This document shows, piece after piece, positions 4,061 to 48,335 of a stretch of 64,000 bases of DNA; position 1 is the stretch's first letter, and the number at the start of each line of letters is the position of its first letter. This stretch comes from Acidobacteriota bacterium. GTDB lineage: Bacteria > Acidobacteriota > Thermoanaerobaculia > Multivoradales > UBA5704. The notes under the pieces are model-generated. The model worked only from the letters and a program-made list of their open reading frames with translations. It was not told the DNA's origin and did not search any database. The translations under genes were made by a program, and so were the position numbers. The DNA lies in the NCBI GenBank assembly GCA_034666985.1, contig JAXDKS010000012.1:23714-87713 (forward strand), in the 5' to 3' direction.

Positions 4061-4362
4061 GGCGGGATTTCTCTCGAATCCTCGAAGATGAGCCGTCTTT
4101 CCGGAACACGCGCCGACTTTCATGGCGCTCGCGTGTATCACCGAATCCTCTCGGTGAGGGAAGAATCTGCGGCGAAGGCGGTAGAGACGTCCCTGGTCCT
4201 GAACGATACCGGTTCGGCCACCACGGGGACCGCGGGACGTCTCCGCGGCGGCGATACCGGTTCCGATCACCCCACCGGTTGGCGGGCTCGCATCATCCCC
4301 TCGGCGACGTCCAGCGATGATGGATCTCGGGCCGCATCGGCCGCCTCAGAGACTGGAGCGGC

Positions 4363-5229
4363 TCAAGGAGCCGCCTGATGCCGCAAAGCATGGACGTAGT
4401 TGATGGGCGCGTGATCGGCAAGGTCGCGAACGGCGGCGGTGCCTCGTCTCCAGGAATTGTGCAGGAGATATTCCTCGCGTGCCTTCCAACCATCCTCATG
4501 AATGAAACCCTCGGTGGCCCCTGTCTTGATCTCCCCCAACCGGTCGATGTATACGGGGTTCGCCTCGTTCACGTGCACATAGCCCAGGTGGACGAAGGGC
4601 GGAGGCAGGTGGGTGACGATATCGCAGCAATCCACATATCGCGAGACGTCAAATCCCGACAGGGTCTCGACGAAGTCGGAATCTCCAACTCTCGGGGCTC
4701 CGAAGATGACGAGCTTCGCAGGGTTTCTCAAACTCGCCGCGAGAATGCTCAGAGCCGCGCCCAGGCTGTGGCCGGTCAACAGCAGCCGTCCTGGATGCGC
4801 CTGGAGCCAGCGGTCCAGATCCGCCCAGATGAGATCCAAATCGGTCTTGAATCCTTCGTGAACCTTGCCTCCTTTGGGCCAGGGGCGCGCGAAGGCCTCC
4901 AGGTCATGCGCCATGTCGGTGAAATCTTCCTGCTCCGTCCCCCGAAACGCAACCACGGCGGTTGCTGAGTGGGGATTCCATGCAGCCAAGGCTTGTGACC
5001 CGTCCCTGTTGAAATAGGCGACTTCGTCAAATCCGACAGATTGCAGAGCACTGCGAGTCTCGCGCTCCTCCTCTGGGAAGCTTTCACATCGCTTGTATGC
5101 TAGCAAAGAACATTCCGCACACAGCAGATCGTCCGGAAGATTCTCCGTGCGAGGAAAGAAACCGGTTGTCAGGTGTGGACGAAAGAGCGCGTCGCGGGTA
5201 GCGTCATAGAGAATTGTGCGCGTGCTCAT
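4363..5229 (-). CDS. class 3 (fungal-type) lipase / alpha-beta hydrolase
   Basis: GHSLGAA nucleophile elbow. ATG with AAGGAG SD. GC is markedly lower than the genome, consistent with horizontal acquisition. Confidence 0.8.
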   Translation of the reverse strand: MSTRTILYDATRDALFRPHLTTGFFPRTENLPDDLLCAECSLLAYKRCESFPEEERETRSALQSVGFDEVAYFNRDGSQALAAWNPHSATAVVAFRGTEQEDFTDMAHDLEAFARPWPKGGKVHEGFKTDLDLIWADLDRWLQAHPGRLLLTGHSLGAALSILAASLRNPAKLVIFGAPRVGDSDFVETLSGFDVSRYVDCCDIVTHLPPPFVHLGYVHVNEANPVYIDRLGEIKTGATEGFIHEDGWKAREEYLLHNSWRRGTAAVRDLADHAPINYVHALRHQAAP

Positions 5230-5282
5230 AGCAGCTCCTTTCTTTTCGGATCAGTTTGCCCAAGCAAACTACAAGCGGGGGT

Positions 5283-5411
5283 TCAGCTGACCTGTTTCGA
5301 TTCGCTGTCGATGTAGATCTTCTCCTTATAGATGAGCCAGATCCCGCCGACCACCATGATCAGGCCGGCGAAGGAGCTCAGGTAGTAGAGTGGCAGGGCG
5401 TTGGTATCCAT
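5283..5411 (-). CDS. possible small membrane protein (42 aa) upstream of lipase
   Basis: MDTNALPLYYLSSFAGLIMVVGGIWLIYKEK... gives a single hydrophobic helix, same strand as the lipase. Weak RBS. Confidence 0.3.
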   Translation of the reverse strand: MDTNALPLYYLSSFAGLIMVVGGIWLIYKEKIYIDSESKQVS

Positions 5412-5571
5412 CTCGGTCCCCTTCTGGTAGAGATCGCTCTCTGTGCGAGGCGTCTCTGGAGGGGGTGTTCGCGTCCGGGAGCGGGTTTCTGACAGGGGTG
5501 AGTGAAGTGAAGGAACGCCGGCCGATGGAGCCACATCAGCCGGCGTTGAGGAGAGGGTTGCTCAGCGAGCT

Positions 5572-7752
5572 CTAGGGATCGACGTAGACCGGGCTCTGTA
5601 TCGATTTCTCAGACGTAATGCCCTTGGTGTCTGTGACCAGCAGAGTGAAATCCACACTCGCCGTGCAACCGGCGAGCGTTGTCCGTCCTTCGATGGGGCC
5701 GAAGCCCAGCTTCTTCATAGGCGCGGGACTAGACGTCTCTGCTGCATGCCGCGCATCGCTGAGAAGGACTTGGAACTGAGTGGTCAGGTCCAGCCTTTCC
5801 TTGATCGGCGAGTCTGTGCCGCACTCGATGACGAGGATGGCGCTTGAGATCGTCGTATGGGCTGCCAGTCCCAGCCACTCGGAATCGATGGATGCGGCAA
5901 GGCTGTAGGGCTTTGGATCGTCCGTGTCATCGCCTGACAGCTCCTCCAGGGAGAGGGCGAGAGATGCAAGCTGACTCGCTGAGAAGCCGGGAGCGATGGT
6001 GCAGGGTGGACACGGAGTTTCCGGCGGCTGGGGCAGGGACAAGCTGGGAGCGTTCATGTCTGGCCGCGTTTCTATCGGGCACCTGGTCGTGCCGGAGACC
6101 GGGAGCCCGGTCACGTAGACCTGGGTTTTCGGGTCGCAGGAGGGCTTGGGAACGATCGGGATGACGGCGACGGGGGAAGACCGTCGGGGACGGATCCGCG
6201 AAAGGTCGGCCGCCGGGCATTCCTGAAGTTGGCAGTTGATGGATTCCACGGCAGGGCAGCGCCCTTCCGCCGTCCCACAGAGTCTGAGGACGGTCCGGCA
6301 GAGCGACAGCCGCTTCAGGTGGGGCGGCCCGATCAGCCAGGAGAGGGGCTTCCAGACATAGTAAGTTGCCTTGTCGGGAAGAGCTTCCGCCGCATGAGCC
6401 ATCCGCTTCATGACCTGAGCTGGCGCCAAGTCCGGCCGCAGGTGCCAGACCACGGCGGCGGTGGAAGAGGCGACGACGGCGGCAACCGAGCTTCCCGTGT
6501 AGATCTGGGTGGGCTCCACGCCTCCGGCCCCGTCTGACGTCCTGGCCACTGCGTGATCGGCGTAGGCGACGCGCCATGGCATGCCGTCGGGGCGGGCATT
6601 GGGCAGCGGCAGGCCTTGCCAGTCGACTCCCCCCACGGCATAAGCAACCTTCTTGCTGAAAAGGCTGGAAAGCCAGGAGCGCGACTCCCAGCCCGCCGGC
6701 AAGAAGGGCTCTTGGTGCTCATGTGCCCCTGACCGGTTGCCGGCGGCAGTGATCACCAGGACACCGAGGTCATGGGCATAGTCCAGGGCGTCGTAGACCG
6801 CCTTGGCCGAGGCTTCGAGCTCCTCCCTCTTTTTCGCGTCGGGGTCTTGGTATTCGCCGTCCCAACCGATGGAGAGGTTCAGGATGAGCTTCGCTTCGGG
6901 CTGGGAATTCTGCCAGTGCTCGATCTCCGCCAGGATGGCGATCGCGAGGTCGCCGATCCGCCCCTGGTGGCCACCGGTGTCACTTCCGGGATCGTCCGGT
7001 GACGCTGAATGGTAATCATCGTGACGCAGCGCGAGCCGGGTCGCGATGTGAATGGGACAGCCCTGAGGCGAGGTGTCATGGCCGCAGACGATCTCGTTGG
7101 CCAGGTGCGCCATCCCGTAGCCATGCCAGGAGCTCGGAGCCGGGTCCTTGGCGGGCGGCCCTTCGCCGGTGGGATGCGTATCGACGAAGACGAGGCGCAC
7201 CGTCGGCTTTTGTGCAGGACCGAGCCGAACTCTTCCGACCTGATCGAGGAAATGCTCGGCGAGCGGCTCCCAGATCTGATCCCCGAGGGGGCCCAGATCG
7301 GTGGGAGCGCTGGGAGTCAGAGCCATCTGGTCAGGCTCGGCCTTCGAGAGCCCGGCCGGCATTCGAAACTCCTGCCCTTGACCTTCATCCGTGTAGACAC
7401 AGAACCGGTCCAAGCCATGCTTGCGGAACAGGGCGTCTCTCTTCGCCTGCCTCTCTCTGTCGATCAGGGTCCGCTTCGGGGGGGCGCCGTACTGATCGCA
7501 GGCTCTCTTGGCGCCGTCCTCGGCATGAGCGACCGCAAGCTCGAACAGGGATTCCGTTCTCCAGCCGGGCACTGCGGGGCAGGAAGAACCCTTCTTGAGC
7601 ACCCCGATCCAGCGGCCTGGAGTGGGGACAGGTCCGGTCGGCTGTTCAGAGGGCTCTTTGACCTTTGGCTTATAGGAGGCGTCCGCGGCAGCTCCTGCGG
7701 CCGTCCAACTCATCGCCAATCCCAAAAGAACGCAAAGAATCCTGGATCGCAT
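5572..7752 (-). CDS. secreted subtilisin-like serine peptidase (S8 family) with Cys-rich C-terminal extension
   Basis: Catalytic D (VFVDTHPTG), H (HGYGMAH), N (AAGN) and S (GSSVAAVVAS) are present. Signal peptide MRSRILCVLLGLAMSWTAAGAAADA. ATG at 7752 with AAGGAGGA SD. Confidence 0.8.
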   Translation of the reverse strand: MRSRILCVLLGLAMSWTAAGAAADASYKPKVKEPSEQPTGPVPTPGRWIGVLKKGSSCPAVPGWRTESLFELAVAHAEDGAKRACDQYGAPPKRTLIDRERQAKRDALFRKHGLDRFCVYTDEGQGQEFRMPAGLSKAEPDQMALTPSAPTDLGPLGDQIWEPLAEHFLDQVGRVRLGPAQKPTVRLVFVDTHPTGEGPPAKDPAPSSWHGYGMAHLANEIVCGHDTSPQGCPIHIATRLALRHDDYHSASPDDPGSDTGGHQGRIGDLAIAILAEIEHWQNSQPEAKLILNLSIGWDGEYQDPDAKKREELEASAKAVYDALDYAHDLGVLVITAAGNRSGAHEHQEPFLPAGWESRSWLSSLFSKKVAYAVGGVDWQGLPLPNARPDGMPWRVAYADHAVARTSDGAGGVEPTQIYTGSSVAAVVASSTAAVVWHLRPDLAPAQVMKRMAHAAEALPDKATYYVWKPLSWLIGPPHLKRLSLCRTVLRLCGTAEGRCPAVESINCQLQECPAADLSRIRPRRSSPVAVIPIVPKPSCDPKTQVYVTGLPVSGTTRCPIETRPDMNAPSLSLPQPPETPCPPCTIAPGFSASQLASLALSLEELSGDDTDDPKPYSLAASIDSEWLGLAAHTTISSAILVIECGTDSPIKERLDLTTQFQVLLSDARHAAETSSPAPMKKLGFGPIEGRTTLAGCTASVDFTLLVTDTKGITSEKSIQSPVYVDP

Positions 7753-7885
7753 GGTGTTCCTCCTTGATGCCGCAGGCAGCGGTGCCGCTCTTGACCGGCA
7801 CGGTCCTGGAGGCCCCTCGTGCCGCGGCTTTCTCCTTAGGCTTTCGCGGCCGGCTGTTCGTTTCTGACGAACGGCAAGCAAGGAA

Positions 7886-10672
7886 TCAAGGAATAAGGAG
7901 GCGGAAGCTCGCCCAGGCAGCCTTGGGGGACGGATCTTTCTTGCGGCAGGCCAGTTGCGCCCGCCGCAACTGGTGTGGGAGATCCTCCCCTGGCTGCCAG
8001 TGGCGGTACAGCTCGTCCATCAACTCGCTGGCGGAAGAATCGGGGACCAACTGCCTCGCGGCGACGACTTCCTTGGAGCCGGCCAGCAGGAAGGCGTTGG
8101 CGAGGCCGACTCCCTCGCCGGGGGCTTCCTCTGAGGTGCGGCCGGCGTCGCAGGCGGAGAGGACGATCGAAGCGGGCGTGTGGGGGGACAGGGCCAGGAC
8201 GTCGCTCAGCGTCAGGCGGGATTGGTCCGCCAGCGGCAACTCGCTGCTCCAGCCGGCGAAGCCGCCGAAGGTCCCATGGCCGGCATAATGAAAGAAGCTC
8301 GCTCTGGCCAGCGCATCGCTAACCTGCTTGGACTTGGCATCGTTGCCCTTTAAAGACGTCAGTGTCCATGAGCCCGGCCAACGCTTGATGGCGGCGGCCA
8401 CCGTCTCCGCTTCAATGTCGGCCGTACGGAGGTCTCTCGTGGGGTTGGAGACCACGAGGGCTTCGTTCTGGCCGCTCCGGGGTATGGAGGCGAGGCGCAT
8501 CGACAGGTCGAGGCTGTAGGCCACCAGATGGGTCGCGAGCAGTGGCTGACCGTGGGTGAAAGGCAGGGCATGGAAGTCCACAGACCTCAGAGGGCCGTAA
8601 GGTAGGACCTTCACGCTCGTGGCGCTCGCGATGGCTGATTGGAAGGCCAGAGACGGCGTGAGAAGGATCCGCGCGAGTTGATCCAGAGGAGCCGCCGAGA
8701 AGTTCTCGGGAAGCTCGATCCTCTCGACCACGATTCCCCGCTCCGTGGCCGCGAAGGCCGCCCACTGCTTTCCGGGCAAGGGGTGATAGGCCAGGATGAC
8801 CTCGCCGGGCGCTGGGGGGGCGAGCGTTCCCTCGCCGTTGCCGCCGAGAGCATCCAGAGTGCCCAGAGCGCCGTCGAGAGCTTCCTGAGCGCCCTTGAGC
8901 CTCTCGGCCTCCTCTTTCAGAGCGCGCTCTTTCTCGCTGACGGCCAACTGCCAGCGCTTCGCGGCGTCGCTTTCGACGGTCTGGCGAATGGCGTTGTACC
9001 TCGACAAAGATTCAAACCAGGTCTTCTGTTCTGTTTCATCTAAATGGCTCAGGCGGTCGCGGACCGCGAGCTGGCGCAGCAACCGCGAGCGAGACCTGCG
9101 AGCCAGGTCGAAGGCACTTTGCCACTGATCCCCTTCGAGCAGCAGCTTGAGATAAAGGCGGGTCGCTGCCTCCTGATAGGCGAAGAAGGTGTCGCGCCCC
9201 TGATGAACCGGAATGTGTCGGCTCTGCTCTGCGATCTGGCGCTCCGCCTTGGCGAGGGCGTCGATGGCCTCCTGCCGCTGTTTGAGGGCGATGTGAGCGT
9301 TGGCCCTGCCGAGCAGCGCCTGGAGGAGGCCCGCGGGCGACGCGGCGCGCTCAGATCTCTTCTCGAGCTTCTCGTAGAGGCCGCGAGCGAGCTCCGGATG
9401 GCCTTCGTGAAGCGCCGCCCGCGCCGCGAGATCGTCCTGCCAGAGCAGCTCGAGCAGATTCGAATGCTCGGCCAGAGCCTGGGCTCGAGCGAGCTGCCGG
9501 CGCGCCTCGGACCATTGGCCCTGTTGCTGATAAGCCAATGCCAGATTTTGGTGAGCGTTGAGCCGTTGTTCTGACGAGCATCCATTCTGCTCGAATTCGG
9601 CCAAGGCCTGCTGGACGACCGGGACCGGGTTTTCGGCGGTATTGCCTGCCTCGTGCTCCATGAGCTGAAACCAGCCCACATTGGTCCAAAGGGTCCCCAA
9701 CGCGCAACTGGATTTGAGGTCAGGGTCGGCCTGCAGTTTGGCGTACAGCGTGGACGCGTCTTGCAAGCGGCCAAGCTGCTGATATACGAGAGCCAGCATC
9801 TGGCCGGCCTCCCTTTTCAGCTTGGGATTTCCAAACCGCTGCGCGAGATCGATTGTTTCCTGGAGCCGCTTCAGAGCTACGGCGTAGTTGCTGGTCTTCT
9901 GAGCCAGTACGCCCTGGTAGAAGGTCACATTGAACCTGTCGTCGGCCGGCGCTTTCGGAGGGGGCCGGAGCGTCTGGAGAATCTGTCCCGCATCGGCGAA
10001 GCTCCCCTGTTCAATGTAGATTCCTGCGAGCCAGGTTGCTTGCTTGGCTACGCCGCTCCAGCGGTTCTCGCTGCGATTCGCGGAGATTCCTTGATTCAGG
10101 TACAGCTCCTCCTTTTCTCTGTCTCCGGCGAGGTGGGCCAGAATGGCGAGCCGCGACAAGGTGAAGCTCTGCTCTTTGCGTGGAGCCGATCTCTGGATTT
10201 GCTCCAACAGGCTCAGGGCCTCGACTCTCTTGCCGGAGCTGATCAGCTTTTGGACCTCGTCCCACCAGGACGGCTGCTCAGGCTCGGCCAGACGAAGGAA
10301 CCAGCTCGGGCCGGGGCTGCCGTCCGGCGAGAAGGCCTCGACCGTCAGCCGGTCGGCCGGCTTGGGAATGGAGAGCAGGTAGCGTCTGCCGCCGCTCACC
10401 TTCTCTTCTTTCTTTGGCTCCAGGAGCCCCCCGCCGGCGCGGAGCTCCACTTTCCGATCCGGGGGAGTGGTCCTCACCCAGAGGGTGAGCTGGCGCTCGG
10501 GAACGAGGGAGCAGACCTGGTCCGGCAGATAGAAGGCCCAGCATCCGGCATACTCGACTTCCAGGACCGGTGGGGCAGGAGCCGGTTTGCCACAAGCCAC
10601 GAGGAGCCCGGCGAGCGCCCCCAGGCAGAGAGACGCGCGAAGGAGAAGGCCCTGGGCTGGGCTCAGGGTCAT
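7886..10672 (-). CDS. lipoprotein with TPR repeats and C-terminal CHAT (caspase-like His/Cys) domain
   Basis: Lipobox LVAC. Multiple TPR-like helical repeats. The C-terminus has HYAGHG...LSACDAG, a His-Cys dyad typical of CHAT. Start ATGA overlaps the anti-sigma stop. Confidence 0.75.
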   Translation of the reverse strand: MTLSPAQGLLLRASLCLGALAGLLVACGKPAPAPPVLEVEYAGCWAFYLPDQVCSLVPERQLTLWVRTTPPDRKVELRAGGGLLEPKKEEKVSGGRRYLLSIPKPADRLTVEAFSPDGSPGPSWFLRLAEPEQPSWWDEVQKLISSGKRVEALSLLEQIQRSAPRKEQSFTLSRLAILAHLAGDREKEELYLNQGISANRSENRWSGVAKQATWLAGIYIEQGSFADAGQILQTLRPPPKAPADDRFNVTFYQGVLAQKTSNYAVALKRLQETIDLAQRFGNPKLKREAGQMLALVYQQLGRLQDASTLYAKLQADPDLKSSCALGTLWTNVGWFQLMEHEAGNTAENPVPVVQQALAEFEQNGCSSEQRLNAHQNLALAYQQQGQWSEARRQLARAQALAEHSNLLELLWQDDLAARAALHEGHPELARGLYEKLEKRSERAASPAGLLQALLGRANAHIALKQRQEAIDALAKAERQIAEQSRHIPVHQGRDTFFAYQEAATRLYLKLLLEGDQWQSAFDLARRSRSRLLRQLAVRDRLSHLDETEQKTWFESLSRYNAIRQTVESDAAKRWQLAVSEKERALKEEAERLKGAQEALDGALGTLDALGGNGEGTLAPPAPGEVILAYHPLPGKQWAAFAATERGIVVERIELPENFSAAPLDQLARILLTPSLAFQSAIASATSVKVLPYGPLRSVDFHALPFTHGQPLLATHLVAYSLDLSMRLASIPRSGQNEALVVSNPTRDLRTADIEAETVAAAIKRWPGSWTLTSLKGNDAKSKQVSDALARASFFHYAGHGTFGGFAGWSSELPLADQSRLTLSDVLALSPHTPASIVLSACDAGRTSEEAPGEGVGLANAFLLAGSKEVVAARQLVPDSSASELMDELYRHWQPGEDLPHQLRRAQLACRKKDPSPKAAWASFRLLIP

Positions 10673-11562
10673 GGGGCGGCCGGCTGACCCTCGGCGCGAA
10701 AGTCCACGCAGGCCACCTGCCAGGGGCCAGGAGATGGTTTCTCCTGCTTGAGAGCATCGCAGAGGGTCTGCCAGGATTCGTTTTGGGGGCGGTTGGCCCG
10801 CAGCCGCGTCTGGACCTCCTTGGCCTCTGGAAGGCTGTTCCGGGCGACGACGGTCCAGAAGATCCAGTCTCCCGGCGGAACCTTGAGGTCGTCCTCACCC
10901 ATCGTGGCGGTGAGGCGGACACTGCCGGTTTTTCCGGGTTCAAACTTGTCTTCCAGTCCCAAAGGCCTCAAATCCTCCCAGCCGGCGCTGGGGCTGAGGA
11001 AAGCTCTCGCCTTGACTGCTCCGGGGTGCTCGAGGGGTTGCTTCGGATTGATCTCCAGGATGAAAGGCGAGCCAGAGGCAAAGATCCGCTTCTCGTTCGG
11101 CGTCGCGGCCTCGCTCCCTCGGTTCGTCTTGAAGCCGCCGTCCAGACTGGCCTCATAGCTGGGTAGCGGCAGCGCCGGCCCCCGCACCAGAAAGAACACC
11201 CCCGCCGCCACCACCGCCGCGGCTCCAATCCAGACCTCCATCCTGCGGGTTACCCGTCGAAAGGGCAGCACGCGGGGCCTCTCCTCCCGAGGCTCGGGGG
11301 CTGGCGCCTCGCTCGTCCGCTCCGCGTTGATCGCGTTCACCACCCGCGCCTGGAAGTCGGCGCCGAGAGGACGGAACGCCTCATAGGCTTCCCGGGCTTC
11401 GGGAGAGGATTCGGCGAGGGCCTTCAGCTCTGTTTCTTCCTCAGCGGTCAAGGTTCCGGCCGCCAGGCGATCCCAGCGCTCGTCGAGGCGGGCCTTCTCG
11501 GTCTCCTCTTCGCGCCGCGCCAGATCCGCCAGCTCTTTCAAAAGTAGATCATCCATATTCAT
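10669..11562 (-). CDS. anti-sigma factor (single-pass membrane protein)
   Basis: The gene sits immediately downstream of the ECF sigma with a 6-bp gap. It has a charged N-terminal domain, one TM helix (WIGAAAVVAAGVFFLV) and a periplasmic domain. Confidence 0.55.
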   Translation of the reverse strand: MNMDDLLLKELADLARREEETEKARLDERWDRLAAGTLTAEEETELKALAESSPEAREAYEAFRPLGADFQARVVNAINAERTSEAPAPEPREERPRVLPFRRVTRRMEVWIGAAAVVAAGVFFLVRGPALPLPSYEASLDGGFKTNRGSEAATPNEKRIFASGSPFILEINPKQPLEHPGAVKARAFLSPSAGWEDLRPLGLEDKFEPGKTGSVRLTATMGEDDLKVPPGDWIFWTVVARNSLPEAKEVQTRLRANRPQNESWQTLCDALKQEKPSPGPWQVACVDFRAEGQPAAP

Positions 11563-11568
11563 CCCCCT

Positions 11569-12207
11569 CTATGTCTTTCGCACCGGCGCCCGGTTTCCTG
11601 ACATCTCGGCCAGCAGCTTCTGGGCCACACGGCGGAGACGGCTGCGCCAGGCATAGACCGCATCGGCGGAGAGGCCGCTCGCCGCTTGGACCTCCGTCTG
11701 CGACAGTTCCTGGACGAAGAGGAGCTGGAACAGACGCCGGCCCAGGGGGCTCAGCTCTTCGCGCAGACGGTCGAGAAGGAGGGAGAGGTGCTCGCGGCTG
11801 GCGGTGACTTCCTCCGGATCGCTGTCCGGGGCCGCCTTGTCGAGCTCGTCTTCGGCAAAGGCGGAGTCCTCCTTCCAGGGATTCCGCCGGCCGCTACGGA
11901 GGAAGGAGAGCACTTGGCGCTCCGCCACCAAGCCCACGAAGTTTTCGAGCGAGAGGCCCCGCTCGGATTGCCAGGAGCGCAGGATGTGGCCGTCCCGGGT
12001 GAAGAGCGCCAGGAAGACTTCCTGGCTCTGATCCTCCACCTCCTGGCGCAGGTCGCGCCCGCTGGCGAGGAGGGAGCGGCGGGCGAGGAGCGTCCGCGCT
12101 ACGCGGGCCTGGATCACGGGCGTCAGCACGGCCACCAGCCGGCTCAGGGCGGTCTGATCTCCGTCCAGGGCTCGCCATACCAGACCGGCGGTGTCCTCAG
12201 CATTCAT
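11569..12207 (-). CDS. ECF (sigma-70 family, group IV) RNA polymerase sigma factor
   Basis: Region 2 and region 4 helices (...LSQTEVQAASGLSADAVYAWRSRLRRVAQKL). Size 212 aa. Position upstream of the anti-sigma gene. Confidence 0.75.
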   Translation of the reverse strand: MNAEDTAGLVWRALDGDQTALSRLVAVLTPVIQARVARTLLARRSLLASGRDLRQEVEDQSQEVFLALFTRDGHILRSWQSERGLSLENFVGLVAERQVLSFLRSGRRNPWKEDSAFAEDELDKAAPDSDPEEVTASREHLSLLLDRLREELSPLGRRLFQLLFVQELSQTEVQAASGLSADAVYAWRSRLRRVAQKLLAEMSGNRAPVRKT

Positions 12208-12333
12208 GGTTTGCAGCAGCGAAGGATGTCTCCTGATTACTTGAGTATAGAACAGAAGCGAAGCGTCCGGCGGCGCGGGAACTTCGGGCGGTACAGCGCT
12301 GATATCCTACCGGACCTGTCAGAGGGAGAATCT

Positions 12334-13824
12334 GTGACAGAAGTCCCCGAGATCCGCATCCGCGCCTGCAACCAGGGGGAGGTCCGCCCGGACGGCGGCT
12401 ATGTCCTCTATTGGATGACCGCTTTCCGTCGGCTGGGGTGGAACTTTGCCCTGGAGCATGCCGCCGGCTGGGCGCGGAAGCTGGGCCGGCCGCTGGTGAT
12501 CCTGGAGCCCCTGCGCTGCGGCTATCGCTGGGCGAGCGACCGCCACCACCGCTTCGTGCTCGACGGCATGGCGATCCACGCGGCGCGGCTGGCGGGCTCG
12601 GAGGTCCTCTACTACCCCTACGTGGAGCCCAGGGCCGGAGCGGGGAAGGGGCTGGTCGAGGCGCTGGGAAAGCAGGCCTGCGTGGTGGTGGCGGACGACG
12701 CGCCGGTCTTCTTCCTGCCCCGCCTGCTCGCCGCTGTGGCTCCGCGCCTTCGGGTGTTGCTGGAGGCGGTGGACTCGAACGGCCTTCTCCCTCTGCGGGC
12801 CGCGGACCGTGAATTCACGGCCGCCTACCACTTCCGGCGCTTCCTCCAGAGGACGCTCCCCGAGCATCTCGCCCACTTCCCGGAGGAGGACCCCCTGGCC
12901 GAGCCCCTGCCGCCGCGCCTCGCGGGTCTGCCGCGGGAGATCGCCCGCCGGTGGCCGGCCGCCGATCCGGAGTGGCTGCGCAACGGGAGCCTCGCGGCGC
13001 TGCCCATCGATCATGAGGTTCCGGCCGCGGCGGGGATCGAAGGAGGGGACGAGGCGGCGGAGCGCGTTCTCGATCGCTTTCTGGACGAGCGGCTGTCGCG
13101 CTACGGCGAGGGGCGGAATGATCCCGGCAGGCCCGGCGAGGAGGTGACGAGCGGCCTCTCTCCCTATCTCCACTTCGGCCAGGTCTCCATCCATCAGATC
13201 TTCGCCGCGCTGGCCGCTCGCGAGCGCTGGAGTCCGGAGCGGCTGGCCCGGACCACCCGCGGCGCCCGCGATGGCTGGTGGGGGATGGGGCCGGCGGCGG
13301 AGAAGTTCCTTGACGAGGCCGTCACCTGGCGCGAGATCGGCTACAACCTGGCCTCCCGGCGTGGAGACGCGGAGCGCTTCGACTCGCTCCCCGACTGGGC
13401 GCGGGCGACGCTGGCGAAGCATGAGGCGGATCCGCGGGCGTATCTCTACTCCCGGGAAGAGTGGGAGGCCGGGGCCACGCACGACGAGCTGTGGAATGCC
13501 GCCCAGGGACAGCTCCGGGAAGAGGGGCGCATCCACAACTACCTGCGGATGCTGTGGGGGAAGAAGGTGCTGGAGTGGTCGGCGAGCCCGCTGGAGGCGC
13601 TGGAGACCCTGGTGGAGCTCAACAACCGCTGGGCCCTGGACGGCCGCGACCCCAACTCCTACAGCGGCATCTTCTGGTGCTTCGGCCGCTACGACAGGCC
13701 ATGGGCGCCGGAGCGGCCGGTGTTCGGCACCGTGAGATATATGAGCAGCGAGAGCACGCGCCGGAAATTCAAGGTGGACGCCTACGTGGCCCGGTATGCT
13801 TCAGCACAGATGTCTCTTCCCTAG
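12334..13824 (+). CDS. phr: class II CPD deoxyribodipyrimidine photolyase
   Basis: RNDPGRPGEEVTSGLSPYLHFGQVS, HNYLRMLWGKKVLEW and WALDGRDPNSYSGIFWCFGRYDRPW are class II photolyase signatures. The N-terminal EIRIR...VLYWM matches the archaeal/bacterial class II N-terminus. I chose GTG at 12334 with a GAGGGAG SD; the alternative ATG at 12226 leaves only 18 bp to the divergent sigma gene. Confidence 0.8.
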   Translation: MTEVPEIRIRACNQGEVRPDGGYVLYWMTAFRRLGWNFALEHAAGWARKLGRPLVILEPLRCGYRWASDRHHRFVLDGMAIHAARLAGSEVLYYPYVEPRAGAGKGLVEALGKQACVVVADDAPVFFLPRLLAAVAPRLRVLLEAVDSNGLLPLRAADREFTAAYHFRRFLQRTLPEHLAHFPEEDPLAEPLPPRLAGLPREIARRWPAADPEWLRNGSLAALPIDHEVPAAAGIEGGDEAAERVLDRFLDERLSRYGEGRNDPGRPGEEVTSGLSPYLHFGQVSIHQIFAALAARERWSPERLARTTRGARDGWWGMGPAAEKFLDEAVTWREIGYNLASRRGDAERFDSLPDWARATLAKHEADPRAYLYSREEWEAGATHDELWNAAQGQLREEGRIHNYLRMLWGKKVLEWSASPLEALETLVELNNRWALDGRDPNSYSGIFWCFGRYDRPWAPERPVFGTVRYMSSESTRRKFKVDAYVARYASAQMSLP

Positions 13825-13840
13825 AAGGACGAGGACCGCC

Positions 13841-14749
13841 ATGCGATCGATCGTGGGACTGCTACCCGTCTGTCTGCTTCTCCTGGGTTGCGCTTCGGCG
13901 GGAGAGCCGGGCAACCTGGCCGGCCGGCTGCAGCCGTTCCTGCAGCGCCAGGACGTGGACATCGCCATCGCCTACCGCAACCTGGGCACCGGCGCCGTCT
14001 ACTTCCACCATGAGGACGTGCCCTTCCACGCCGCCAGCACCATGAAGCTGCCGGTGATGATGGCTCTCTTTCAAGCCGTCGACGCCGGCGAGATGCGGTT
14101 GAGCGAGCCCTTCGCCGTGCGCAACCAGTTCCAGAGCCTCGTGGACGGCTCGCCGTTCGCCCTCGATCCCAAGGAGGACGGCGATGCCGATTTCTATCAG
14201 GCGGTGGGGAGCACCCGGCCGCTGGAGGAGCTGATCCGGCGGATGATCGTCCGCAGCTCGAACCTCGCCACCAATCTCCTCATCGAGCGCATCGGCGCCT
14301 CGCGGGCCACGGACCTGATGAGGGGCCTGGGGGCCTACCGGATGAAGGTGCTGCGCGGCGTGGAGGACGAGAAGGCTTTCAAGGCGGGGCTCAACAACAT
14401 GGCCACGGCCAAGGATCTGGAGATCCTGCTCACCGCGCTCGCCCGCGGCGGCACGTTCTCTCAAGGCTCGAACGACCGGATGATCGAGATCCTCAAGGAG
14501 CAGGAGTTCAACGAGAAGATCCCCGCCTATCTGCCCAAGGGGACGCCGATCGCTCACAAGACGGGGGACATCACGGGCATCCACCACGACGCGGCGATCG
14601 TCTTTCCGCCGGGAGAGCCGCCCTACGTGCTGGTGGTGCTCACCCGCGGCTTCCAGGATGAGAAGCAGGCCAACCAGATCATCGCCGAGATCTCGCGGAC
14701 GGTGTGGGAGCGGCGGGGGGAAAGGGTTTCGGCGGGAGCGCAGCCATGA
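13841..14749 (+). CDS. class A beta-lactamase-like serine hydrolase (lipoprotein)
   Basis: STMK (SxxK), SSN (SDN-like) and KTG motifs. Signal/lipobox LLLGCASA. Confidence 0.75.
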   Translation: MRSIVGLLPVCLLLLGCASAGEPGNLAGRLQPFLQRQDVDIAIAYRNLGTGAVYFHHEDVPFHAASTMKLPVMMALFQAVDAGEMRLSEPFAVRNQFQSLVDGSPFALDPKEDGDADFYQAVGSTRPLEELIRRMIVRSSNLATNLLIERIGASRATDLMRGLGAYRMKVLRGVEDEKAFKAGLNNMATAKDLEILLTALARGGTFSQGSNDRMIEILKEQEFNEKIPAYLPKGTPIAHKTGDITGIHHDAAIVFPPGEPPYVLVVLTRGFQDEKQANQIIAEISRTVWERRGERVSAGAQP

Positions 14750-16146
14750 TGGATCTCTTGAAACGCACCGCGGATCTCGCCCAGGAGTTCCTCGACGGCC
14801 TGCCGGAGAGGCGGGTGGGGCCGGCCGTGCCGGTCGAGGAGCTGCGGGCGGCCCTGGGCGGATCGCTGCCGGAGCGGGGGGAGGATGCACTCCGAGTCAT
14901 GGAGCACCTGGCGCGGGCCGCGGATCCGGGGCTGGTGGGGATGGCCGGCCCCCGCTACTTCGGCTTCGTCATCGGCGGCCACGTGCCGGCCTCGCTGGCC
15001 GCGGACTGGCTCACCTCGACGTGGGACCAGAACGCCACCCTCTACGTGACCTCGCCCGCCAACTCGGTGGTGGAGGAGGTGGCGGCCGGCTGGGTGCTGG
15101 AGCTCCTGGGGCTCCCGGCCACGGCCAGCGTGGGCTTCACCACCGGCTGCTCCATGGCCAACTTCACGGCCTTGGCCGCGGCCCGCCACGCCGTCCTTGC
15201 CCGCGCGGGCTGGGACGTGGAGGCGCAGGGCCTCTTCGGCGCGCCGGAGATCGAGGTGGTGATCGGCGAGGAGGCCCACGCCACCATCCTCTCCGCCTTG
15301 CAGATGCTGGGTCTGGGGAGGGAGCGAGTGAAGCGGGTGGCCATGGACTCCCAGGGCCGGATGGTGCCGGAGGCGCTGCGCGACGTCCTGGCCGGAGGCT
15401 CGGGGCCGCTCATCGTCTGCGCCCAGGCAGGCAACGTCAACACCGGCTCCTTCGATCCGCTGGAAGCCATCATCCCACTGGTGCGCGAGCGCGGCGGCTG
15501 GCTCCATGTGGATGGCGCCTTTGGACTGTGGGCCGGAGCCGTGCCCTCTCTCGCTCATCTCGTGCGTGGCGCCGACCAGGCGGACTCCTGGGCCACGGAT
15601 GCCCACAAGTGGCTCAACGTGCCCTACGACTCGGGGATCGTCATCGTGGCCCATCCCGAGCCTCACCGCGCGGCGATGACCATTTCCGCCGCCTACCTGG
15701 CCCAGACCGAAGGGCGCGAGCGCGATCCCTTCGACTGGGTGCCGGAGTTCTCGCGCCGGGCCCGGGGCTTCACCGTCTGGGCGGCCCTGCGATCGCTCGG
15801 ACGGGATGGCGTCAAGGAGCTGGTGGAGCGCTGCTGCGCCCTGGCCCGGCGGTTCGCAAAGAGGCTGGGGAGCGAGCCGGGGGTCGAGATCCTCAACGAC
15901 GTGGTGCTCAATCAGGTCCTCGTCCGCTTCTCCTCTCCAAGCGGAGACGCCGGCGCCCTGACGCGAGACGCCTTGACCCGAGACATCATCGCCCGGGTCC
16001 AGGCGGGCGGCACCTGCTGGCTGGGGGGCACCACCTGGCACGGCAAGGCGGCGATGCGGATCTCGGTCTCCAACTGGTCGACGACGGAGGCGGACGTGGA
16101 CGCTTCGGCGGCGGCCATCCTGCGGTGCTTCCGGGCCGCGTGCTAG
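14746..16146 (+). CDS. PLP-dependent group II decarboxylase / aminotransferase-fold enzyme
   Basis: DAHKW is the PLP-Lys motif. About 466 aa. ATGA overlap with the upstream stop. Confidence 0.7.
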
Positions 16147-16170
16147 CATTCTCCTCCCTGGAGGCTTGCG

Positions 16171-18598
16171 CATGACTTCTTCTCTCATGGATCGGGACGC
16201 TTCGCTCCTTCCCGCCGCGCTCACGAAGGAGAGCGTGCTGCGCGATTACCGGATCGCCTTCCAGAGCCGGCATGCGAGCCTCATCGGCCGGCGGGAGGTG
16301 ATCACCGGCAAGGCCAAGTTCGGCATCTTCGGCGACGGCAAGGAGGTGGCCCAGGTGGCCCTCGCCCGCGCCTTCCGTCCCGGCGACTTCCGCTCCGGCT
16401 ACTACCGCGACCAGACGCTGATGATGGCCCTCGGCCTGCTCACGGTCGAGCAGTTCTTTGCCCAGCTCTACGCCGACGCCGACGTCGAGCGCGAGCCCTG
16501 CTCCGCCGGCCGCTCGATGACCGCCCACTTCGCGACCTGCCTGCTGGAGCCGGACGGCAGCTTCAAGAATCTGGCCGACCGCGTGAACGTGGCCTCCGAC
16601 GTCTCGCCCACCGGCTCGCAGATGCCGCGCCTCGTCGGCCTCGCCTATGCCTCGAAGCTCTACCGCGAGCTGCCGGAGCTCGAAGAAGTGGCCGCGCGGT
16701 TCTCCCGCCACGGCGACGAGGTGGCCTTCGGCACCATCGGCAACGCGAGCTGCGCCGAGGGGATGTTCTGGGAGGCGGTCAACGCCGTGGGCGTGCTCCA
16801 GGCGCCCATGCTGCTCTCCATCTGGGACGACGGCTACGGCATCTCGGTGCCCAACGAGTACCAGATCACCAAGGGCGACCTCTCGGCCATCCTCTCGGGC
16901 TTCCGCCGGGAGCCGGGGAGCCGCCAGGGCTACGATCTCTATACCGTCTCGGGATGGGACTACGCCGGCCTCTGCGAGACCTATCTCTCGGCCGTGCAGA
17001 TCGTCCGCCGCGAGCACGTGCCGGCGATCGTCCACGTGATCGAAATGACCCAGCCCCAGGGGCACTCCACCTCCGGCAGCCACGAGCGCTACAAGTCCCG
17101 GGAGCGCCTGGACTGGGAGGTGGAATTCGATCCCATCCGCAAGATGCGGCAGTGGCTGATCGAGCAGGGGATCGCGACCGTCCAGGAGCTTGACGCCGTG
17201 GAAGAGGAAGACCTGCGCTTCGTGCGCGAGGCCCAGCGCCGGGCGTGGGACCAGCTCCGGGCTCCCATCGAGGCGGAGAAGCGGACGGCCCTGGCTCTCC
17301 TCGACGAGCTCGCCCGCGAGTCAGCGCGGGGCGAGGAGGTCCGGAAGATCCGTCAGGAGCTGGAGAAGCAGCCGGCGGCCCTGCGCCGCGACGTCCTTTC
17401 CGCCGTGCACAGCGCCCTGGTGGCCACGGCCGGGGAGGACCTGCCCGCCGCGCGCCGGCTGGTCGAGTGGAAACGGGAGATCGTCCGGGAGAATGAGGAC
17501 CGCTACAGCTCTCACCTCTACAGCGAGGGTCCACGCGCCGCCGTCAACATCCCGCCGGTGCCGGCCGAGTACCGGGACGACTCGCCCCTCCTCAACGGCT
17601 TCGAGGTGGTCAACGCCTGCTTCGACGCCGCCCTGGGCCGCAATCCCAACGTCATCGCCATCGGCGAGGACGTGGGCAGGATCGGCGACGTCAACCAGGG
17701 CTTCGCCGGCCTCCAGGCCAAGTACGGCCCGCTGCGGGTGACGGACACGGGCATCCGTGAGACGACCATCATGGGGCAGGCCATCGGCATGGCCCTGCGC
17801 GGCCTGCGCCCCATCGCCGAGATCCAGTATCTGGACTACATCCTCTATGGATTGCAGATCCTGTCGGACGATGTGGCCACCCTGCACTGGCGCACCAAGG
17901 GGCTGCAGAAGGCGCCGATCATCGTCCGCACCCGTGGCCACCGCCTGGAGGGGATCTGGCACTCAGGCTCGCCCATGGCGGGGATCCTCAATCTGGTGCG
18001 GGGGATGTACGTATGCGTGCCGCGCAACATGACCCAGGCGGCGGGCTTCTACAACACCCTGCTGGAGGGCGACGACCCCGCGATCGTGGTGGAGGTGCTC
18101 AACGGCTACCGGCAGAAGGAGAAGCTGCCGGCCAACATCGGCGAGCTCAAGGTGCCGCTGGGCGTGCCCGAGGTGCTGCGCTTGGGGGACGACGTCACGG
18201 TGGTGACCTACGGCGCCAACTGCCGCATCGCTATGGAGGCGGCGGACAAGCTCGCCCAGGTGGGGATCGACGTCGAGATCGTCGACGTCCAGACCCTGCT
18301 GCCGTTCGACCTCCACGGCCGGATCGTGGAGTCGGTGAAGAAGACCAATCGCGTCCTCTTCCTGGACGAGGACGTGCCCGGCGGCGCCACGGCCTACATG
18401 CTCCAGGAGGTGGTGGAGAAGCAGGGCGGCTTCGCCTGGCTCGACTCCGCCCCGAGGACCCTCACCGGCAAGGCCCACCGGCCGTCCTACGGCTCGGACG
18501 GCGACTACTTCTCCAAGCCCAGCCGGGAGTCCATCTTCGAGGCGGTCTACGACATGATGCACGAGGCCGACCCGGGGTTCCCGGTTTTCTATCGGTAG
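16171..18598 (+). CDS. fused alpha/beta E1 component of 2-oxo acid (branched-chain keto acid) dehydrogenase, TPP-dependent
   Basis: The N-terminal half resembles E1-alpha (TPP-binding). The C-terminal half resembles E1-beta (transketolase-like, ...[16 protein letters not shown]...[10 protein letters not shown]). An 809-aa fusion. Confidence 0.75.
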
Positions 18599-43101: not shown

Positions 43102-44058
43102 CTACGAGCGCAACAGGAAGAATCCCGCCAGGGCCAGCGCGATCACCAGGACCGCGAGCCCGATCCAGACGAGCGTCTTCTTGCCGCTCCCCTCACCGCC
43201 CCGCAGCAGCGAGCCGGCTTCGCGGATCTCGGTGAGCACCCGCAGGCTCAGGGTCTCCTCCAGCCGCTCCAGGGCGGCCAGCAGGTCGTTCGCGCTGGCG
43301 TAGCGCTCGTCGGGCCGGCGCGCCAGGCAGCGCAGGGCCACCACGTCCACCTGCGGCGGCAGCTCGGGGTTGAGCTGGCTCGGCAGGCCGAGCTTGGGGC
43401 CGGGCGAGCGGCCGGTGAGCATCTCGTGGAAGATGGCGCCGGCGGAGTAGAGGTCCGCGCGGGCGTCGACCGCGGCGCTGCCCTCCAGGATCTCGGGCGC
43501 CAGGTAGTAGAGGGCGCCGAGGCGGATCTCGCCGGTGGAGAGCGTGGCCGTGAGGTTCTGGCCCGAGATCGACTCGAAGCCGCTGACCCCCAGGTCCGCC
43601 ACTTTGACGGTGGCGAAGTCGGGCGAGATCAGGACGTTGCGCGGCGTCAGGCTGCGGTGCAGTTGGCCGTGCTGATGGGCGTGGGCCAGCCCCCGGCAGA
43701 CGCCACGCATCACCGCGAAGGCCTCGGGCAGGGAGACGCGCCGCTGCTTCAAAACCCGATCGAGGGACGTCCCCTCCACCATCTCCATGGCGAGGTAGAG
43801 CTGCTCGCCGTGCTGGCCCGTCCCCAGGACGCGCACCAGGTGCGGGTGCCGGGTGATCGGGGCCACCGTGGCCAGCTCGCGGTGGAAGCGCTCCACCGTG
43901 GCGGGATCGCCCGTGAGGCGGGGCGGGAAGAGCTTGAGGGCCACGGGGCGGCCCTTGGGATCCTCCCCCCGGTAGACGGTCGACTGCCCGGCCTTGCCGA
44001 GCAGCTCGCGCACGCGGTAGGGACCGATGGCGTCAGGAATTGGAGGTGGCTGTGGCAT
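43102..44058 (-). CDS. membrane-anchored Ser/Thr kinase-like protein, predicted pseudokinase
   Basis: Kinase fold with VALK, E in alphaC and DLG. The catalytic loop reads HRSLTPRN, not HRDLKPxN (Asp and Lys missing). C-terminal TM. Confidence 0.6.
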   Translation of the reverse strand: MPQPPPIPDAIGPYRVRELLGKAGQSTVYRGEDPKGRPVALKLFPPRLTGDPATVERFHRELATVAPITRHPHLVRVLGTGQHGEQLYLAMEMVEGTSLDRVLKQRRVSLPEAFAVMRGVCRGLAHAHQHGQLHRSLTPRNVLISPDFATVKVADLGVSGFESISGQNLTATLSTGEIRLGALYYLAPEILEGSAAVDARADLYSAGAIFHEMLTGRSPGPKLGLPSQLNPELPPQVDVVALRCLARRPDERYASANDLLAALERLEETLSLRVLTEIREAGSLLRGGEGSGKKTLVWIGLAVLVIALALAGFFLLRS

Positions 44059-44070
44059 CGCTCTCGAAGA

Positions 44071-45366
44071 TCAGTTGACCTCAAAGATCATAACCGTGTC
44101 CCCGATCGCAATGCGATCGAAAGGCTTCAGAGCCGCCCGGGCCTCCAGCTTGCCGTTGACGCGGGTACCGTGGCTGCTGCCCAGATCGGTCATCACCCAG
44201 GAGCCGCCCTCCCAGGCGAGTTGGAGGTGCTCCTTGCTGGCGTTGGGATCGGTGAGTGGCAGGGCGCAGGCGCGGGAGCGGCCGACCAGGACCGGCTTGC
44301 CGCCGTCGAGGGCCACGGACCGGCCGCGCTCCGCCCCTTCGGCCACGTAGAGCCGGGCTGGCGGCGGGCCCTCCTGCGCCGCCTTCCGTGCCGCCGCGTG
44401 CCGTGGGTGCTCCGGCCGCGAGATCTCCAGCGTCTGGATGGGGTAGGGGATGACGATCCCTTCCTTGTGGAACTCCTCCCAGACGCGGGACCGCACGTCG
44501 CTCGCGATCTTCGGCCCCTGCGCCATGTCCTCGATCCAGATCCGCAGCTCGTAGAGGACGGCGCTGGGATCGAAGGAGAGGAGATAGACGTCCGGCGCCG
44601 GCTTGTCCAGCACCCCCATCACGGCGGCGGCGCAGTCGAGCAGCACCCGGCGCACGTGGTACGGCGGCTCGTCGAAGTGGGCCGCCACCTTGACCCGCTC
44701 CAGGTGCAGCGGGTGCGGATAGTAGAAGTTGAGCACCCGCTCGTCGGCCAGCTTGCTGTTGGGGATCACCAGGTTGTCGTTGTCCCGCGTCCGCAGGTGG
44801 GTGGTGCGCCAGGTGATGGCCATCACCCGCCCCTCCTGCTCGCCCACCCGGATCCAGTCGTTGATGCGGAACGGCTTTTCGACGCTGATCACCAGGCCGG
44901 CGAAGAAGTTGCCGAGGATCGGCTGCAGCGCGAGGCCCAGCACCAGCGAGGTGACGGCGCTGGTGGCGATGAGCGGCGCCACGTCCAGCCTGGGGAAGGA
45001 AATGCGCAGCGTCACCAGGGCGGTGACCAGGTAGACGAGCAGCATGGTCACCGCCGGCAGCAGCGGCGGCAGGCGCATCCCCCGGCGGGCCGTGAGGTGC
45101 ACCTCGAACAGGTACATCCCCAGGAGCCGGAAGACGGCGATCAACCCGAGGAAGAGACTGGCCCAGCCCAGGATCTCCGCCATCGCGGCCGACTGATAGG
45201 CGGGCTCGATGAGGCGGAAGACCTCCAGCGCCGCCACCCCGGCTCCCACGTAGAGCGGGAAGGCGAGCTGGCGCACCCAGAAGAAGCGCCGGCCGAACGC
45301 GGCCACGGCCACGATCAGCAGCGAGAGCAGGCCGGCGCTCCCCAGGACGGCGAGGGTCATCCGCAA
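44071..45366 (-). CDS. MscS-family mechanosensitive channel fused to C-terminal FHA domain
   Basis: TM helices plus the MscS beta-domain (GLVISVEKPFRINDWIRV). C-terminal FHA (GRSRACALPL...SKEHLQL...GSSHGTRVNG...IGDTVMIFE). Confidence 0.7.
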   Translation of the reverse strand: MRMTLAVLGSAGLLSLLIVAVAAFGRRFFWVRQLAFPLYVGAGVAALEVFRLIEPAYQSAAMAEILGWASLFLGLIAVFRLLGMYLFEVHLTARRGMRLPPLLPAVTMLLVYLVTALVTLRISFPRLDVAPLIATSAVTSLVLGLALQPILGNFFAGLVISVEKPFRINDWIRVGEQEGRVMAITWRTTHLRTRDNDNLVIPNSKLADERVLNFYYPHPLHLERVKVAAHFDEPPYHVRRVLLDCAAAVMGVLDKPAPDVYLLSFDPSAVLYELRIWIEDMAQGPKIASDVRSRVWEEFHKEGIVIPYPIQTLEISRPEHPRHAAARKAAQEGPPPARLYVAEGAERGRSVALDGGKPVLVGRSRACALPLTDPNASKEHLQLAWEGGSWVMTDLGSSHGTRVNGKLEARAALKPFDRIAIGDTVMIFEVN

Positions 45367-48262: not shown

Positions 48263-48335
48263 TCCTCACCTGAAAACACAAAGCGGGCGGCTCCGGGGAG
48301 TCGCCCGCTTTGTGGAAGAGTCGCTGGCGAAGACT

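Follow-up and report, generated by a model that had tools for sequence, protein, structure and literature searches.

In the DdvS/DdvA system of Myxococcus xanthus (PMC6061681, NAR 2018; PMC11506125, Sci Adv 2024; PDB 8rot and 8rw5), DdvA is a single-pass anti-sigma factor whose periplasmic part is formed by tetratricopeptide repeats (TPR) and a CHAT domain, enzyme and substrate being one dimeric polypeptide (PMC11506125). The proposal made for it is a signal-induced cut of its juxtamembrane linker by CHAT in trans, followed by the action of RseP, and DdvA-like proteins have been reported only in some Myxococcota and in one Comamonas (PMC11506125). In type III-E CRISPR systems, Csx29 cleaves Csx30, the inhibitor of an extracytoplasmic function (ECF)-like sigma factor, CASP-sigma (PMC10028731). 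For the actinobacterial group ECF54, reported as having no recognized anti-sigma factor, two papers (PMC8999054, PMC7826278) that summarize Huang et al. 2015 describe a conserved context with a carboxypeptidase, a subtilase and a CHAT protein, for which proteolytic control was proposed. The ECF classification paper (Casas-Pastor et al.) lists ECF54 as lacking a clear regulator, and its main text makes no mention of CHAT. Here we analyze a stretch of 64,000 nucleotides, hereafter the window, from a metagenome-assembled genome of the Thermoanaerobaculia, Acidobacteriota (contig JAXDKS010000012.1, positions 23,714 to 87,713), which carries at 5572-12207 a cassette of four genes: sigA, coding for an ECF-type sigma factor; asA, for a candidate anti-sigma factor; chatA, for an exported TPR-CHAT lipoprotein; and S8, for a secreted subtilase.

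We read this cassette (module A) as a self-contained envelope-signaling unit in which a proteolytic switch of the DdvS/DdvA type is split over separate proteins and has S8 and the downstream genes for outputs, and put the probability of this reading at about 0.5.

The four-gene cassette and its conservation

The four open reading frames (ORFs) all lie on the minus strand of the window, which has a G+C content of ~68%. At their head stands sigA (11569-12207; 212 aa), a divergent ECF-type sigma factor that narrowly passes the TIGR02937 sigma70-ECF model (44.7 bits; cut-off 42.9) and gives a weak region-4 match in Pfam, the region models being weak or below cut-off. Both SigA and SigB, the sigma factor of a second module in the window (see below), have sigma-2 and sigma-4 regions only and match the superfamily model (SigB with 47.6 bits), as is characteristic of ECF group 4. 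After a gap of 6 bp follows asA (10669-11562; 297 aa), or of 12 bp with the start used by NCBI, which is the third codon at 11556 and gives a protein of 295 aa; its product has one transmembrane helix at about residues 110-126. The overlap of asA with chatA (7886-10672; 928 aa) is an ATGA, and the S8 gene (5572-7752; 726 aa) lies beyond a further gap of 133 bp, its product starting at a Met followed by a signal peptide. The original prediction, made from the DNA alone, had named these four types of gene on one strand at these coordinates and is upheld in this, as well as in the 6-bp gap and the ATGA overlap; only its last gap, given as 134 bp, is one too long.

To survey the cassette, we used an alignment of 26 CHAT homologues to scan one genome per GTDB species, which yielded 80 further loci taken with 10-kb flanks, and scored the presence of genes around CHAT by tblastn with the four window proteins. 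The closest relatives of the CHAT protein are found in metagenome-assembled genomes of Thermoanaerobaculia. The hosts of the loci belong to the Acidobacteriota (Thermoanaerobaculia, Holophagales and others) and the Myxococcota (Myxococcaceae, including Pyxidicoccus caerfyrddinensis, Polyangium, Sorangium, Byssovorax, Kofleriaceae, Labilithrix and Bradymonadia). A sigma homologue lies upstream of CHAT on the same strand in 62 of the 73 loci whose flank reaches 2 kb or more, an anti-sigma is detectable in 55 of 73 with enough flank, and S8 is found downstream of CHAT in 56 of 75 with enough flank. The other 19 of these 75, mostly from Polyangiales and Sorangium, have no S8 beside the module and keep the sigma, anti-sigma and CHAT genes. 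Across the 80 loci the sigma factor is 45-87% identical to that of the window, above the 28-75% of CHAT, and 1363 homologues of sigA are found at E <= 1e-8. The most frequent asA-chatA junction is the 4-nt overlap, seen in 15 loci. Each of the window genes outside the four is common to at most 4 loci. Because the synteny is conserved and the flanks are not, the unit comprises exactly these four genes and moves as one through unrelated contexts. The data thus support the four genes being a conserved functional unit in two phyla.

The adjacency could in principle be fortuitous, or merely syntenic with no shared function. ECF sigma factors and CHAT proteins are indeed many in high-GC genomes, and the distant CHAT proteins P0040 and P0038 sit in unrelated contexts, which also led us to reject ECF linkage as a general property of CHAT proteins. 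However, the conservation in two phyla amid unconserved flanks, the translational coupling, and the gene fusions and strand-specific motif described below refute such an explanation, which we regard as extremely improbable. The claim of the original prediction that the adjacency is no accident is therefore borne out by co-occurrence across genomes, both for the sigma factor and for S8.

We also considered as a fifth member the photolyase-like gene divergent from sigA (12334-13824, plus strand), whose 496-aa product gives sub-threshold photolyase/FAD-binding matches; it is present in the source contig only and in no related locus, and was rejected. Separately, tblastn shows the sigma gene of two loci (L013 and L036), as well as the CHAT gene of L036, to be split over two frames, which points to either decaying copies or indel errors of assembly.

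The product of asA defines a candidate anti-sigma family of ~2000 representative clusters for which there is no Pfam model. In a 90%-identity collection 446 homologues were scored at E <= 1e-3, none of them with a Pfam domain, and a Pfam scan of 37 homologues at E <= 1 gave no consistent family. A profile search of 1.84 billion representative proteins recovered 2157 at E <= 1e-3 and 1078 at E <= 1e-10. The AlphaFold model of AsA (predicted local distance difference test, pLDDT, 83) shows N-terminal helices at residues 2-33, 38-50, 52-61 and 66-81, followed by the transmembrane helix and an Ig-like beta-sandwich. Its most conserved part is the cytoplasmic N-terminus, with the consensus DERWDRLAAGTLTxEEExELKALAxSSPEAxEAYEAFRPLGADFQARVV. 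A second hallmark is the juxtamembrane motif PLPxY-x5-GG-x4-R148-[G/S/A], in which R148 is retained by every one of 64 orthologues, drawn from both phyla, the rest of the juxtamembrane linker being variable.

Among the best 150 representatives retrieved with the AsA profile, four (P0378, P0411, P0412 and P0427) are fusions of 1156-1249 aa that fall into four independent 50%-identity clusters. Each has a full AsA-like part (helices, transmembrane helix, Arg motif and Ig-like domain) that runs through a short linker into the (L/V)xVxYAGC start of a beta-sandwich, followed by TPR and CHAT; residues 278-1174 of P0411 align with residues 37-928 of ChatA at 34% identity (E = 3e-98). All four carry the equivalent of R148 and have no lipobox. 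Since no lipoprotein signal peptide remains where the two parts meet, they are real fusions and not products of read-through at the ATGA overlap. The fusion loci (L094, L095 and L096) have the order sigma, fusion, S8, and the fusion proteins reproduce the domain order of DdvA. They thus provide classical Rosetta-stone evidence, at the level of sequence, that AsA and the TPR-CHAT protein would act as one unit.

ChatA has a signal peptide, a lipobox (LLVAC, with Cys27), TPR repeats and a CHAT domain (Pfam E = 9e-34); its assignment as a lipoprotein is predicted from sequence, and the lipobox Cys is aligned in 65 of 81 CHAT orthologues. In the AlphaFold model (pLDDT 85; predicted template modeling score, pTM, 0.82) a beta-sandwich (36-129) precedes a TPR superhelix (137-602) and the CHAT domain (624-927). 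The catalytic dyad His799/Cys841 is present in 79 of 81 loci, and so is the pair Cys44/Cys54 of the N-terminal domain, a disulphide-like arrangement that fits an extracytoplasmic location. A Foldseek search of the PDB with the model places DdvA first (8rw5 and 8rot, E = 2e-14), then Csx29 from several craspase structures and then separases, with low global TM-scores (0.24-0.34) of the kind expected for flexible multidomain proteins. Sequence searches of the PDB, both with the single protein and with the 26-sequence profile, found TPR proteins only and neither DdvA nor Csx29. Likewise, the Csx29 model NF041237 has no match in ChatA and reaches 26 bits in ChatB, the TPR-CHAT protein of the second module, against a cut-off of 300. 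The relationship of ChatA to DdvA and Csx29, as judged from the predicted structure, is visible only at the level of the fold.

The S8 protein passes the Peptidase_S8 model PF00082 (30.4 bits; cut-off 21.8) and is mycosin-like (E = 5e-14). All 56 orthologues retain its catalytic residues D191, H210, N339 and S422, and four Cys pairs are conserved among them. One locus (L002) has two tandem S8 paralogues (12913-15090 and 15344-17440) that are 62% and 58% identical to the S8 of the window. Ahead of the catalytic Asp lie ~160 conserved residues, including conserved Cys and Trp, which could be a pro-domain. This raises the alternative of a two-protease cascade, in essence the protease activation of the original prediction, in which CHAT would process the S8 pro-region or the reverse, and the sigma/anti-sigma pair would only set expression levels. 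The co-occurrence of both proteases in most loci of Acidobacteriota and Myxococcaceae would agree with this; however, many lineages dispense with S8, and no Pfam inhibitor or pro-peptide domain is detected in it, so that we consider such a cascade quite improbable.

The promoter motif and the predicted regulon

A bipartite motif, TGTCAGAAA-N13-GCGAA (in its fuller form yTGTCAGAAAc-N12-GCGAA), is present in three copies in the window, all on the minus strand, against a chance expectation of 0.58; three copies are reached in 4 of 100 shuffles. The first copy, P1 (GTCAGGAAACCGGGCGCCGGTGCGAA, 11577-11602), has one mismatch and falls within the final codons of sigA, the asA start following 14-20 nt later; P2 (GTCAGAAACGAACAGCCGGCCGCGAA, 7843-7868) is in the chatA-S8 spacer; and P3 (GTCAGAAACCCGCTCCCGGACGCGAA, 5468-5493) is downstream of the S8 stop. 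The motif has an AAC core in its -35 element and a CG(A/T) core in its -10 element with a short variable spacer, which fits the ECF promoter type described for DdvS and other ECF sigma factors, for which spacers of 14-17 bp have been reported. The predicted ECF promoters are at these three positions and not upstream of 12207 and 10672, where the original prediction had expected them.

Fifty-one acidobacterial loci, totaling 980 kb, contain 132 copies of the motif, every one of them on the operon strand, compared with 0-6 in block shuffles. Positions left free by the search are conserved as well: GTCAG is preceded by a T (86%) and followed by an A, and the -10 element continues as GCGAA-R-R-N-C. 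By position, the motif is found at the 3' end of the sigma gene in 37 loci, before S8 in 46 loci, at 39 sites within ~1.2 kb downstream of S8, and at 22 sites further downstream on the same strand. Of the 57 loci with S8, 48-49 have P2 in register, at a distance of 47-157 nt before the ATG of S8. P1 keeps a distance to the anti-sigma ATG of 22 nt (21 loci), 19 nt (6 loci) or 25 nt (4 loci), a Shine-Dalgarno sequence lying between the two, whereas its position relative to the sigma stop codon varies between -26 and +30. Because the former is fixed while the latter varies, P1 is constrained as DNA and not as coding sequence.

Variants of the motif occur outside this set. At the place of P1, Polyangium has TGTCAGAAA-N13-TCGTAG, and the -10 variants of Myxococcaceae are GCATAA, GCAAAT and GCGAAT. 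In the lineage with the AsA-CHAT fusions GCAAAG takes the place of GCGAA as the -10 element, at P1 as well as at P2, alongside divergence of the sigma factor, from which we gather that P1 and P2 co-vary with the sigma. The predicted regulon would have P1 serving asA-chatA, P2 serving S8, and P3 and the later copies serving genes downstream. The Myxococcaceae have S8 only 9-27 nt after CHAT and lack P2, an arrangement in which P1 would serve S8 as well.

The sigma gene itself appears to be differently controlled. A sigma-70-type -10-like hexamer, TCTATACT (12244-12251, minus strand), lies 37 nt upstream of the sigA ATG and is the sole YCTATAMT in the window. Across the loci, TATAAT, TATACT or TATGAT stands 23-97 nt (mostly 23-57) before the sigma start in 42 of 63, all of them of the Acidobacteriota type, despite a G+C content of ~68% in these genomes, and such a hexamer is found upstream of the sigma in none of the Myxococcota loci. 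An autoregulatory ECF-type motif was sought upstream of sigA, and only this TATAAT-like hexamer was found. No -35 match accompanies it, a consensus sigma-70 scan of 4200-12500 gave no promoter with two hexamers, and terminator-like sites in the same interval are not above chance. An Rfam scan of the whole window gave no matches. We take the hexamer at 12244-12251 to be a probable promoter, and the arrangement suggests that the sigma gene is constitutively expressed and not autoregulated.

The genes behind P3 are variable. In the window the first of these is an ORF for a hydrophobic peptide of 42 aa (MDTNALPLYYLSSFAGLIMVVGGIWLIYKEKIYIDSESKQVS, 5283-5411, minus strand), 56 nt after P3, which is a gene call in the source contig and has a homologue following S8 in L004. 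The next is a Lipase_3 gene (4363-5229, minus strand; Pfam E = 1e-19), which is common to only 3 loci and is probably the last member of the P3 transcription unit. Elsewhere, four families recur: proteins of ~770 aa with EPERxHFxALVLxNPNYFGN, of ~605 aa with SYIFKGRLCGxICPxCPEP and a transthyretin-like domain, and of ~750 aa with EGRYRVRLE, and secreted Pro-rich proteins of ~270 aa. More scattered are trypsin-like and papain-like (C1) proteases, a second S8, a TIR protein, an outer-membrane beta-barrel and DUF6345, and some downstream genes code for CarboxypepD_reg domains. Most of these cargo proteins have no Pfam match, and PADLOC, run on the core proteins and five downstream families, matched nothing except one TIR protein (L022). 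The large cargo proteins (~600-770 aa, no Pfam), each behind a copy of TGTCAGAAA-N13-GCGAA, make up a variable island on the operon strand (L003, L004, L008, L012, L014, L016, L025, L027, L033, L034, L038, L047, L060 and L072).

With its own promoter and its absence from several lineages, S8 looks like an output rather than an obligatory step of the switch, and is best seen as an output, a feedback component or an accessory. An alternative view would extend this to both proteases: AsA alone would sense through its Ig-like domain and be degraded by generic envelope proteases, and CHAT, S8 and the cargo would be effectors with no part in sigma activation, for instance hydrolases, secreted or at the surface, that act in nutrition, predation or envelope remodeling. 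It draws on the presence of the motif ahead of asA-chatA, S8 and the downstream genes alike, on the hydrolases encoded downstream (trypsin-like, papain C1, second S8, lipase), and on the published warning that context by itself does not separate regulators from targets (Casas-Pastor et al.). However, it does not account for the translational coupling of the anti-sigma and CHAT genes or for their fusion in several lineages. Nor would the strict one-to-one linkage be expected of an effector when the other downstream genes vary. Moreover, DdvA, module A and the second module represent three independent architectures that combine a periplasmic TPR-CHAT with an anti-sigma. We regard this output-only view as possible but rather unlikely.

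A second, differently wired module in the window

The original prediction had pointed to a second sigma, anti-sigma and TPR-CHAT module at 45.4-50.1 kb and called it paralogous. Such a module (module B, 45398-50125, minus strand) is present with the same architecture, but it is analogous and shares almost no sequence with module A: similarity between the CHAT proteins is limited to 61 aa around the catalytic Cys and that between the sigma factors to 66 aa in a stretch of region 4, and the anti-sigmas give no alignment. It consists of sigB (49532-50125), asB (48719-49393), coding for a ZAS (zf-HC2) anti-sigma with HxxxCxxC, and chatB (45398-48235; CHAT E = 4e-58), whose product is not a lipoprotein; it starts with a signal peptide and has a transmembrane helix at its C-terminus.

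The gap of ~480 bp between asB and chatB (48263-48718) contains, in order, a hairpin, a promoter, a leader, a small ORF and a second hairpin, which were compared in four loci (L082, L083, L084 and L086). The hairpins are terminator-like and the leader of ~120 nt is conserved. The promoter, GAAAC-N16-CGTTAT (48589-48615, minus strand), is of the ECF type and the only one of its kind in the window. The ORF (MSTATDPKNTTVPTGTGGNGKDDPVKLCCTAPPDTDPGPIKP, 48336-48464, minus strand) codes for a peptide of 42 aa that has no signal sequence and ends in CCTAPPDTDPGPIKP; its Cys-Cys/Pro-rich C-terminus is conserved, with two tandem copies in L084, and its possible roles include those of a substrate for CHAT, a modified peptide and a regulator. 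It appears that chatB is not co-transcribed with sigB-asB.

A metagenome scan recovered the order sigB-asB-chatB in 4 of the 5 loci whose flanks sufficed, and asB adjoins chatB in three short contigs, the flanks being different. Thus, as an independent and differently wired lineage, module B supports the linkage of an ECF sigma/anti-sigma pair with an exported TPR-CHAT protein. Directly on the 3' side of chatB in the window, on the minus strand, lie genes for a mechanosensitive-channel (MscS) protein with a C-terminal FHA domain (44071-45366) and a Ser/Thr protein kinase (43102-44058), which are not conserved beside chatB elsewhere.

The proposed switch and its relation to known systems

Taken as a proteolytic switch, the cassette might work as follows. 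The sigma gene would run on a housekeeping-type promoter, and AsA would hold SigA at the inner membrane, forming with the translationally coupled TPR-CHAT lipoprotein one periplasmic sensor unit. A signal in the periplasm, probably a protein to which the TPR or Ig-like domains bind, would activate the His-Cys site of CHAT, which would then cut AsA in its juxtamembrane segment, where Arg148 and the small residue after it form the candidate site. Intramembrane proteolysis of the cut AsA would free SigA to act at P1 on asA-chatA, as a negative feedback, at P2 on S8, and at P3 and the later copies on variable hydrolases and large proteins. Envelope proteolytic signaling, as originally predicted, remains the best reading, with S8 taken out of the obligatory steps: it has its own promoter and is absent from Polyangiales/Sorangium, module B and DdvA.

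The candidate cleavage site also admits another protease. Here S8 would be the site-1 protease that cuts AsA at Arg148, while the TPR-CHAT protein would serve as sensor or as gatekeeper, either shielding the site or presenting it; as S8 is predicted to be sigma-dependent, this would entail positive feedback. The eukaryotic site-1 protease for SREBP is itself a subtilase. The invariance of R148, followed by a small residue, the invariant catalytic residues and signal peptide of S8, and its own sigma-type promoter would all suit this role. Against it, S8 is missing beside 19 of the 75 modules, from module B and from DdvA, and the conservation of the CHAT dyad under selection argues against a purely non-catalytic sensor. 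We hold this assignment of the cut to S8 to be unlikely.

Several points weigh against the proteolytic switch led by CHAT that we prefer. The genes asA-chatA and S8 are both behind the motif, and hence both proteases could be mere outputs. The recognition of the motif by SigA is suggested by co-occurrence and co-variation, and in the comparison with DdvS (GTAA-N16-CGT) the corresponding GAAA-N14-CGAA of TGTCAGAAA-N13-GCGAA has a spacing that is 2 nt shorter. Neither Pfam nor NCBIfam assigns asA to a family, and Foldseek with the AsA model finds weak Ig/nanobody-like matches (E ~1e-3) and none for the helical N-terminus. In hhalign, the AsA family and the ZAS anti-sigma of module B match with a non-significant probability of 11%, and residues 1-100 of AsA have no Cys/His zinc-binding motif and no zf-HC2 match. 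As these fold and profile searches gave nothing specific, the label anti-sigma rests on position, topology and the fusions. Finally, in DdvA itself CHAT cleavage has never been observed, and dyad mutants have no phenotype in unstimulated cells (PMC11506125).

A bolder version of the switch would assign it to envelope surveillance: CHAT and the subtilase, as a two-step cascade, would detect a foreign periplasmic protein (of phage, predator or competitor), destroy a new class of anti-sigma at its invariant Arg and switch on a hypervariable island that codes for large, uncharacterized proteins. We offer this as a speculative and rather doubtful proposal. Were it true, the cassette would be an Acidobacteriota-wide counterpart of the DdvS/DdvA defense island with entirely new effectors.

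Among known systems, the cassette resembles canonical regulated intramembrane proteolysis (DegS/RseP on RseA; PrsW/RasP on RsiW) in having a single-pass anti-sigma that would be clipped before site-2 and in its predicted negative feedback. It differs in that the candidate site-1 protease is a co-encoded caspase-fold enzyme and not a housekeeping serine protease, and in that the sigma gene is apparently not autoregulated. The published description of ECF54 recalls the CHAT and S8 genes of the cassette and the CarboxypepD_reg domains encoded by some downstream genes; ECF54, however, is reported from Actinobacteria and as having no anti-sigma, whereas the cassette has a conserved membrane protein, its candidate anti-sigma, between sigma and CHAT. 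In the craspase system (Csx29, Csx30, Csx31 and CASP-sigma), a TPR-CHAT protease cuts the inhibitor of an ECF-like sigma and so turns on a local regulon; the cassette ties a TPR-CHAT protein to a candidate inhibitor of an ECF-type sigma, for which such a cut is predicted. Csx29 is cytoplasmic, bound to Cas7-11 and activated by target RNA, and Csx30 is soluble, whereas the cassette is extracytoplasmic and comes with no CRISPR genes.

The closest parallel is with DdvS/DdvA, which, like the ECF54 context, does not figure in the original prediction. Several differences set the two apart. The window encodes the anti-sigma and the TPR-CHAT protein in separate genes, the latter being a lipoprotein. 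AsA has no CHCC zinc site, and an Ig-like domain and a beta-sandwich are added; the survey of DdvA-like proteins required a zinc-binding N-terminal domain (PMC11506125), which the AsA family does not have. The cassette also includes an S8 subtilase, its hosts are mainly Acidobacteriota, and sigA, unlike the gene for DdvS, is not preceded by the motif. In contrast to the DdvS/DdvA island, there are no CBASS or CRISPR genes and no PADLOC match for the core proteins. Both systems nevertheless combine an ECF sigma factor with a single-pass anti-sigma, a candidate in the case of AsA, and with a TPR-CHAT part that lies in the periplasm and carries a His-Cys dyad, and have several predicted sigma-dependent promoters downstream in the locus. 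With enzyme and putative substrate separate, a single invariant candidate residue and predicted target promoters, cleavage in trans, its specificity and the signaling are testable here, and the variable proteins predicted to be sigma-dependent may reveal what the switch responds to. Together, these observations widen the range of the coupling between periplasmic TPR-CHAT proteins and ECF sigma factors from a few Myxococcota to a major soil phylum.

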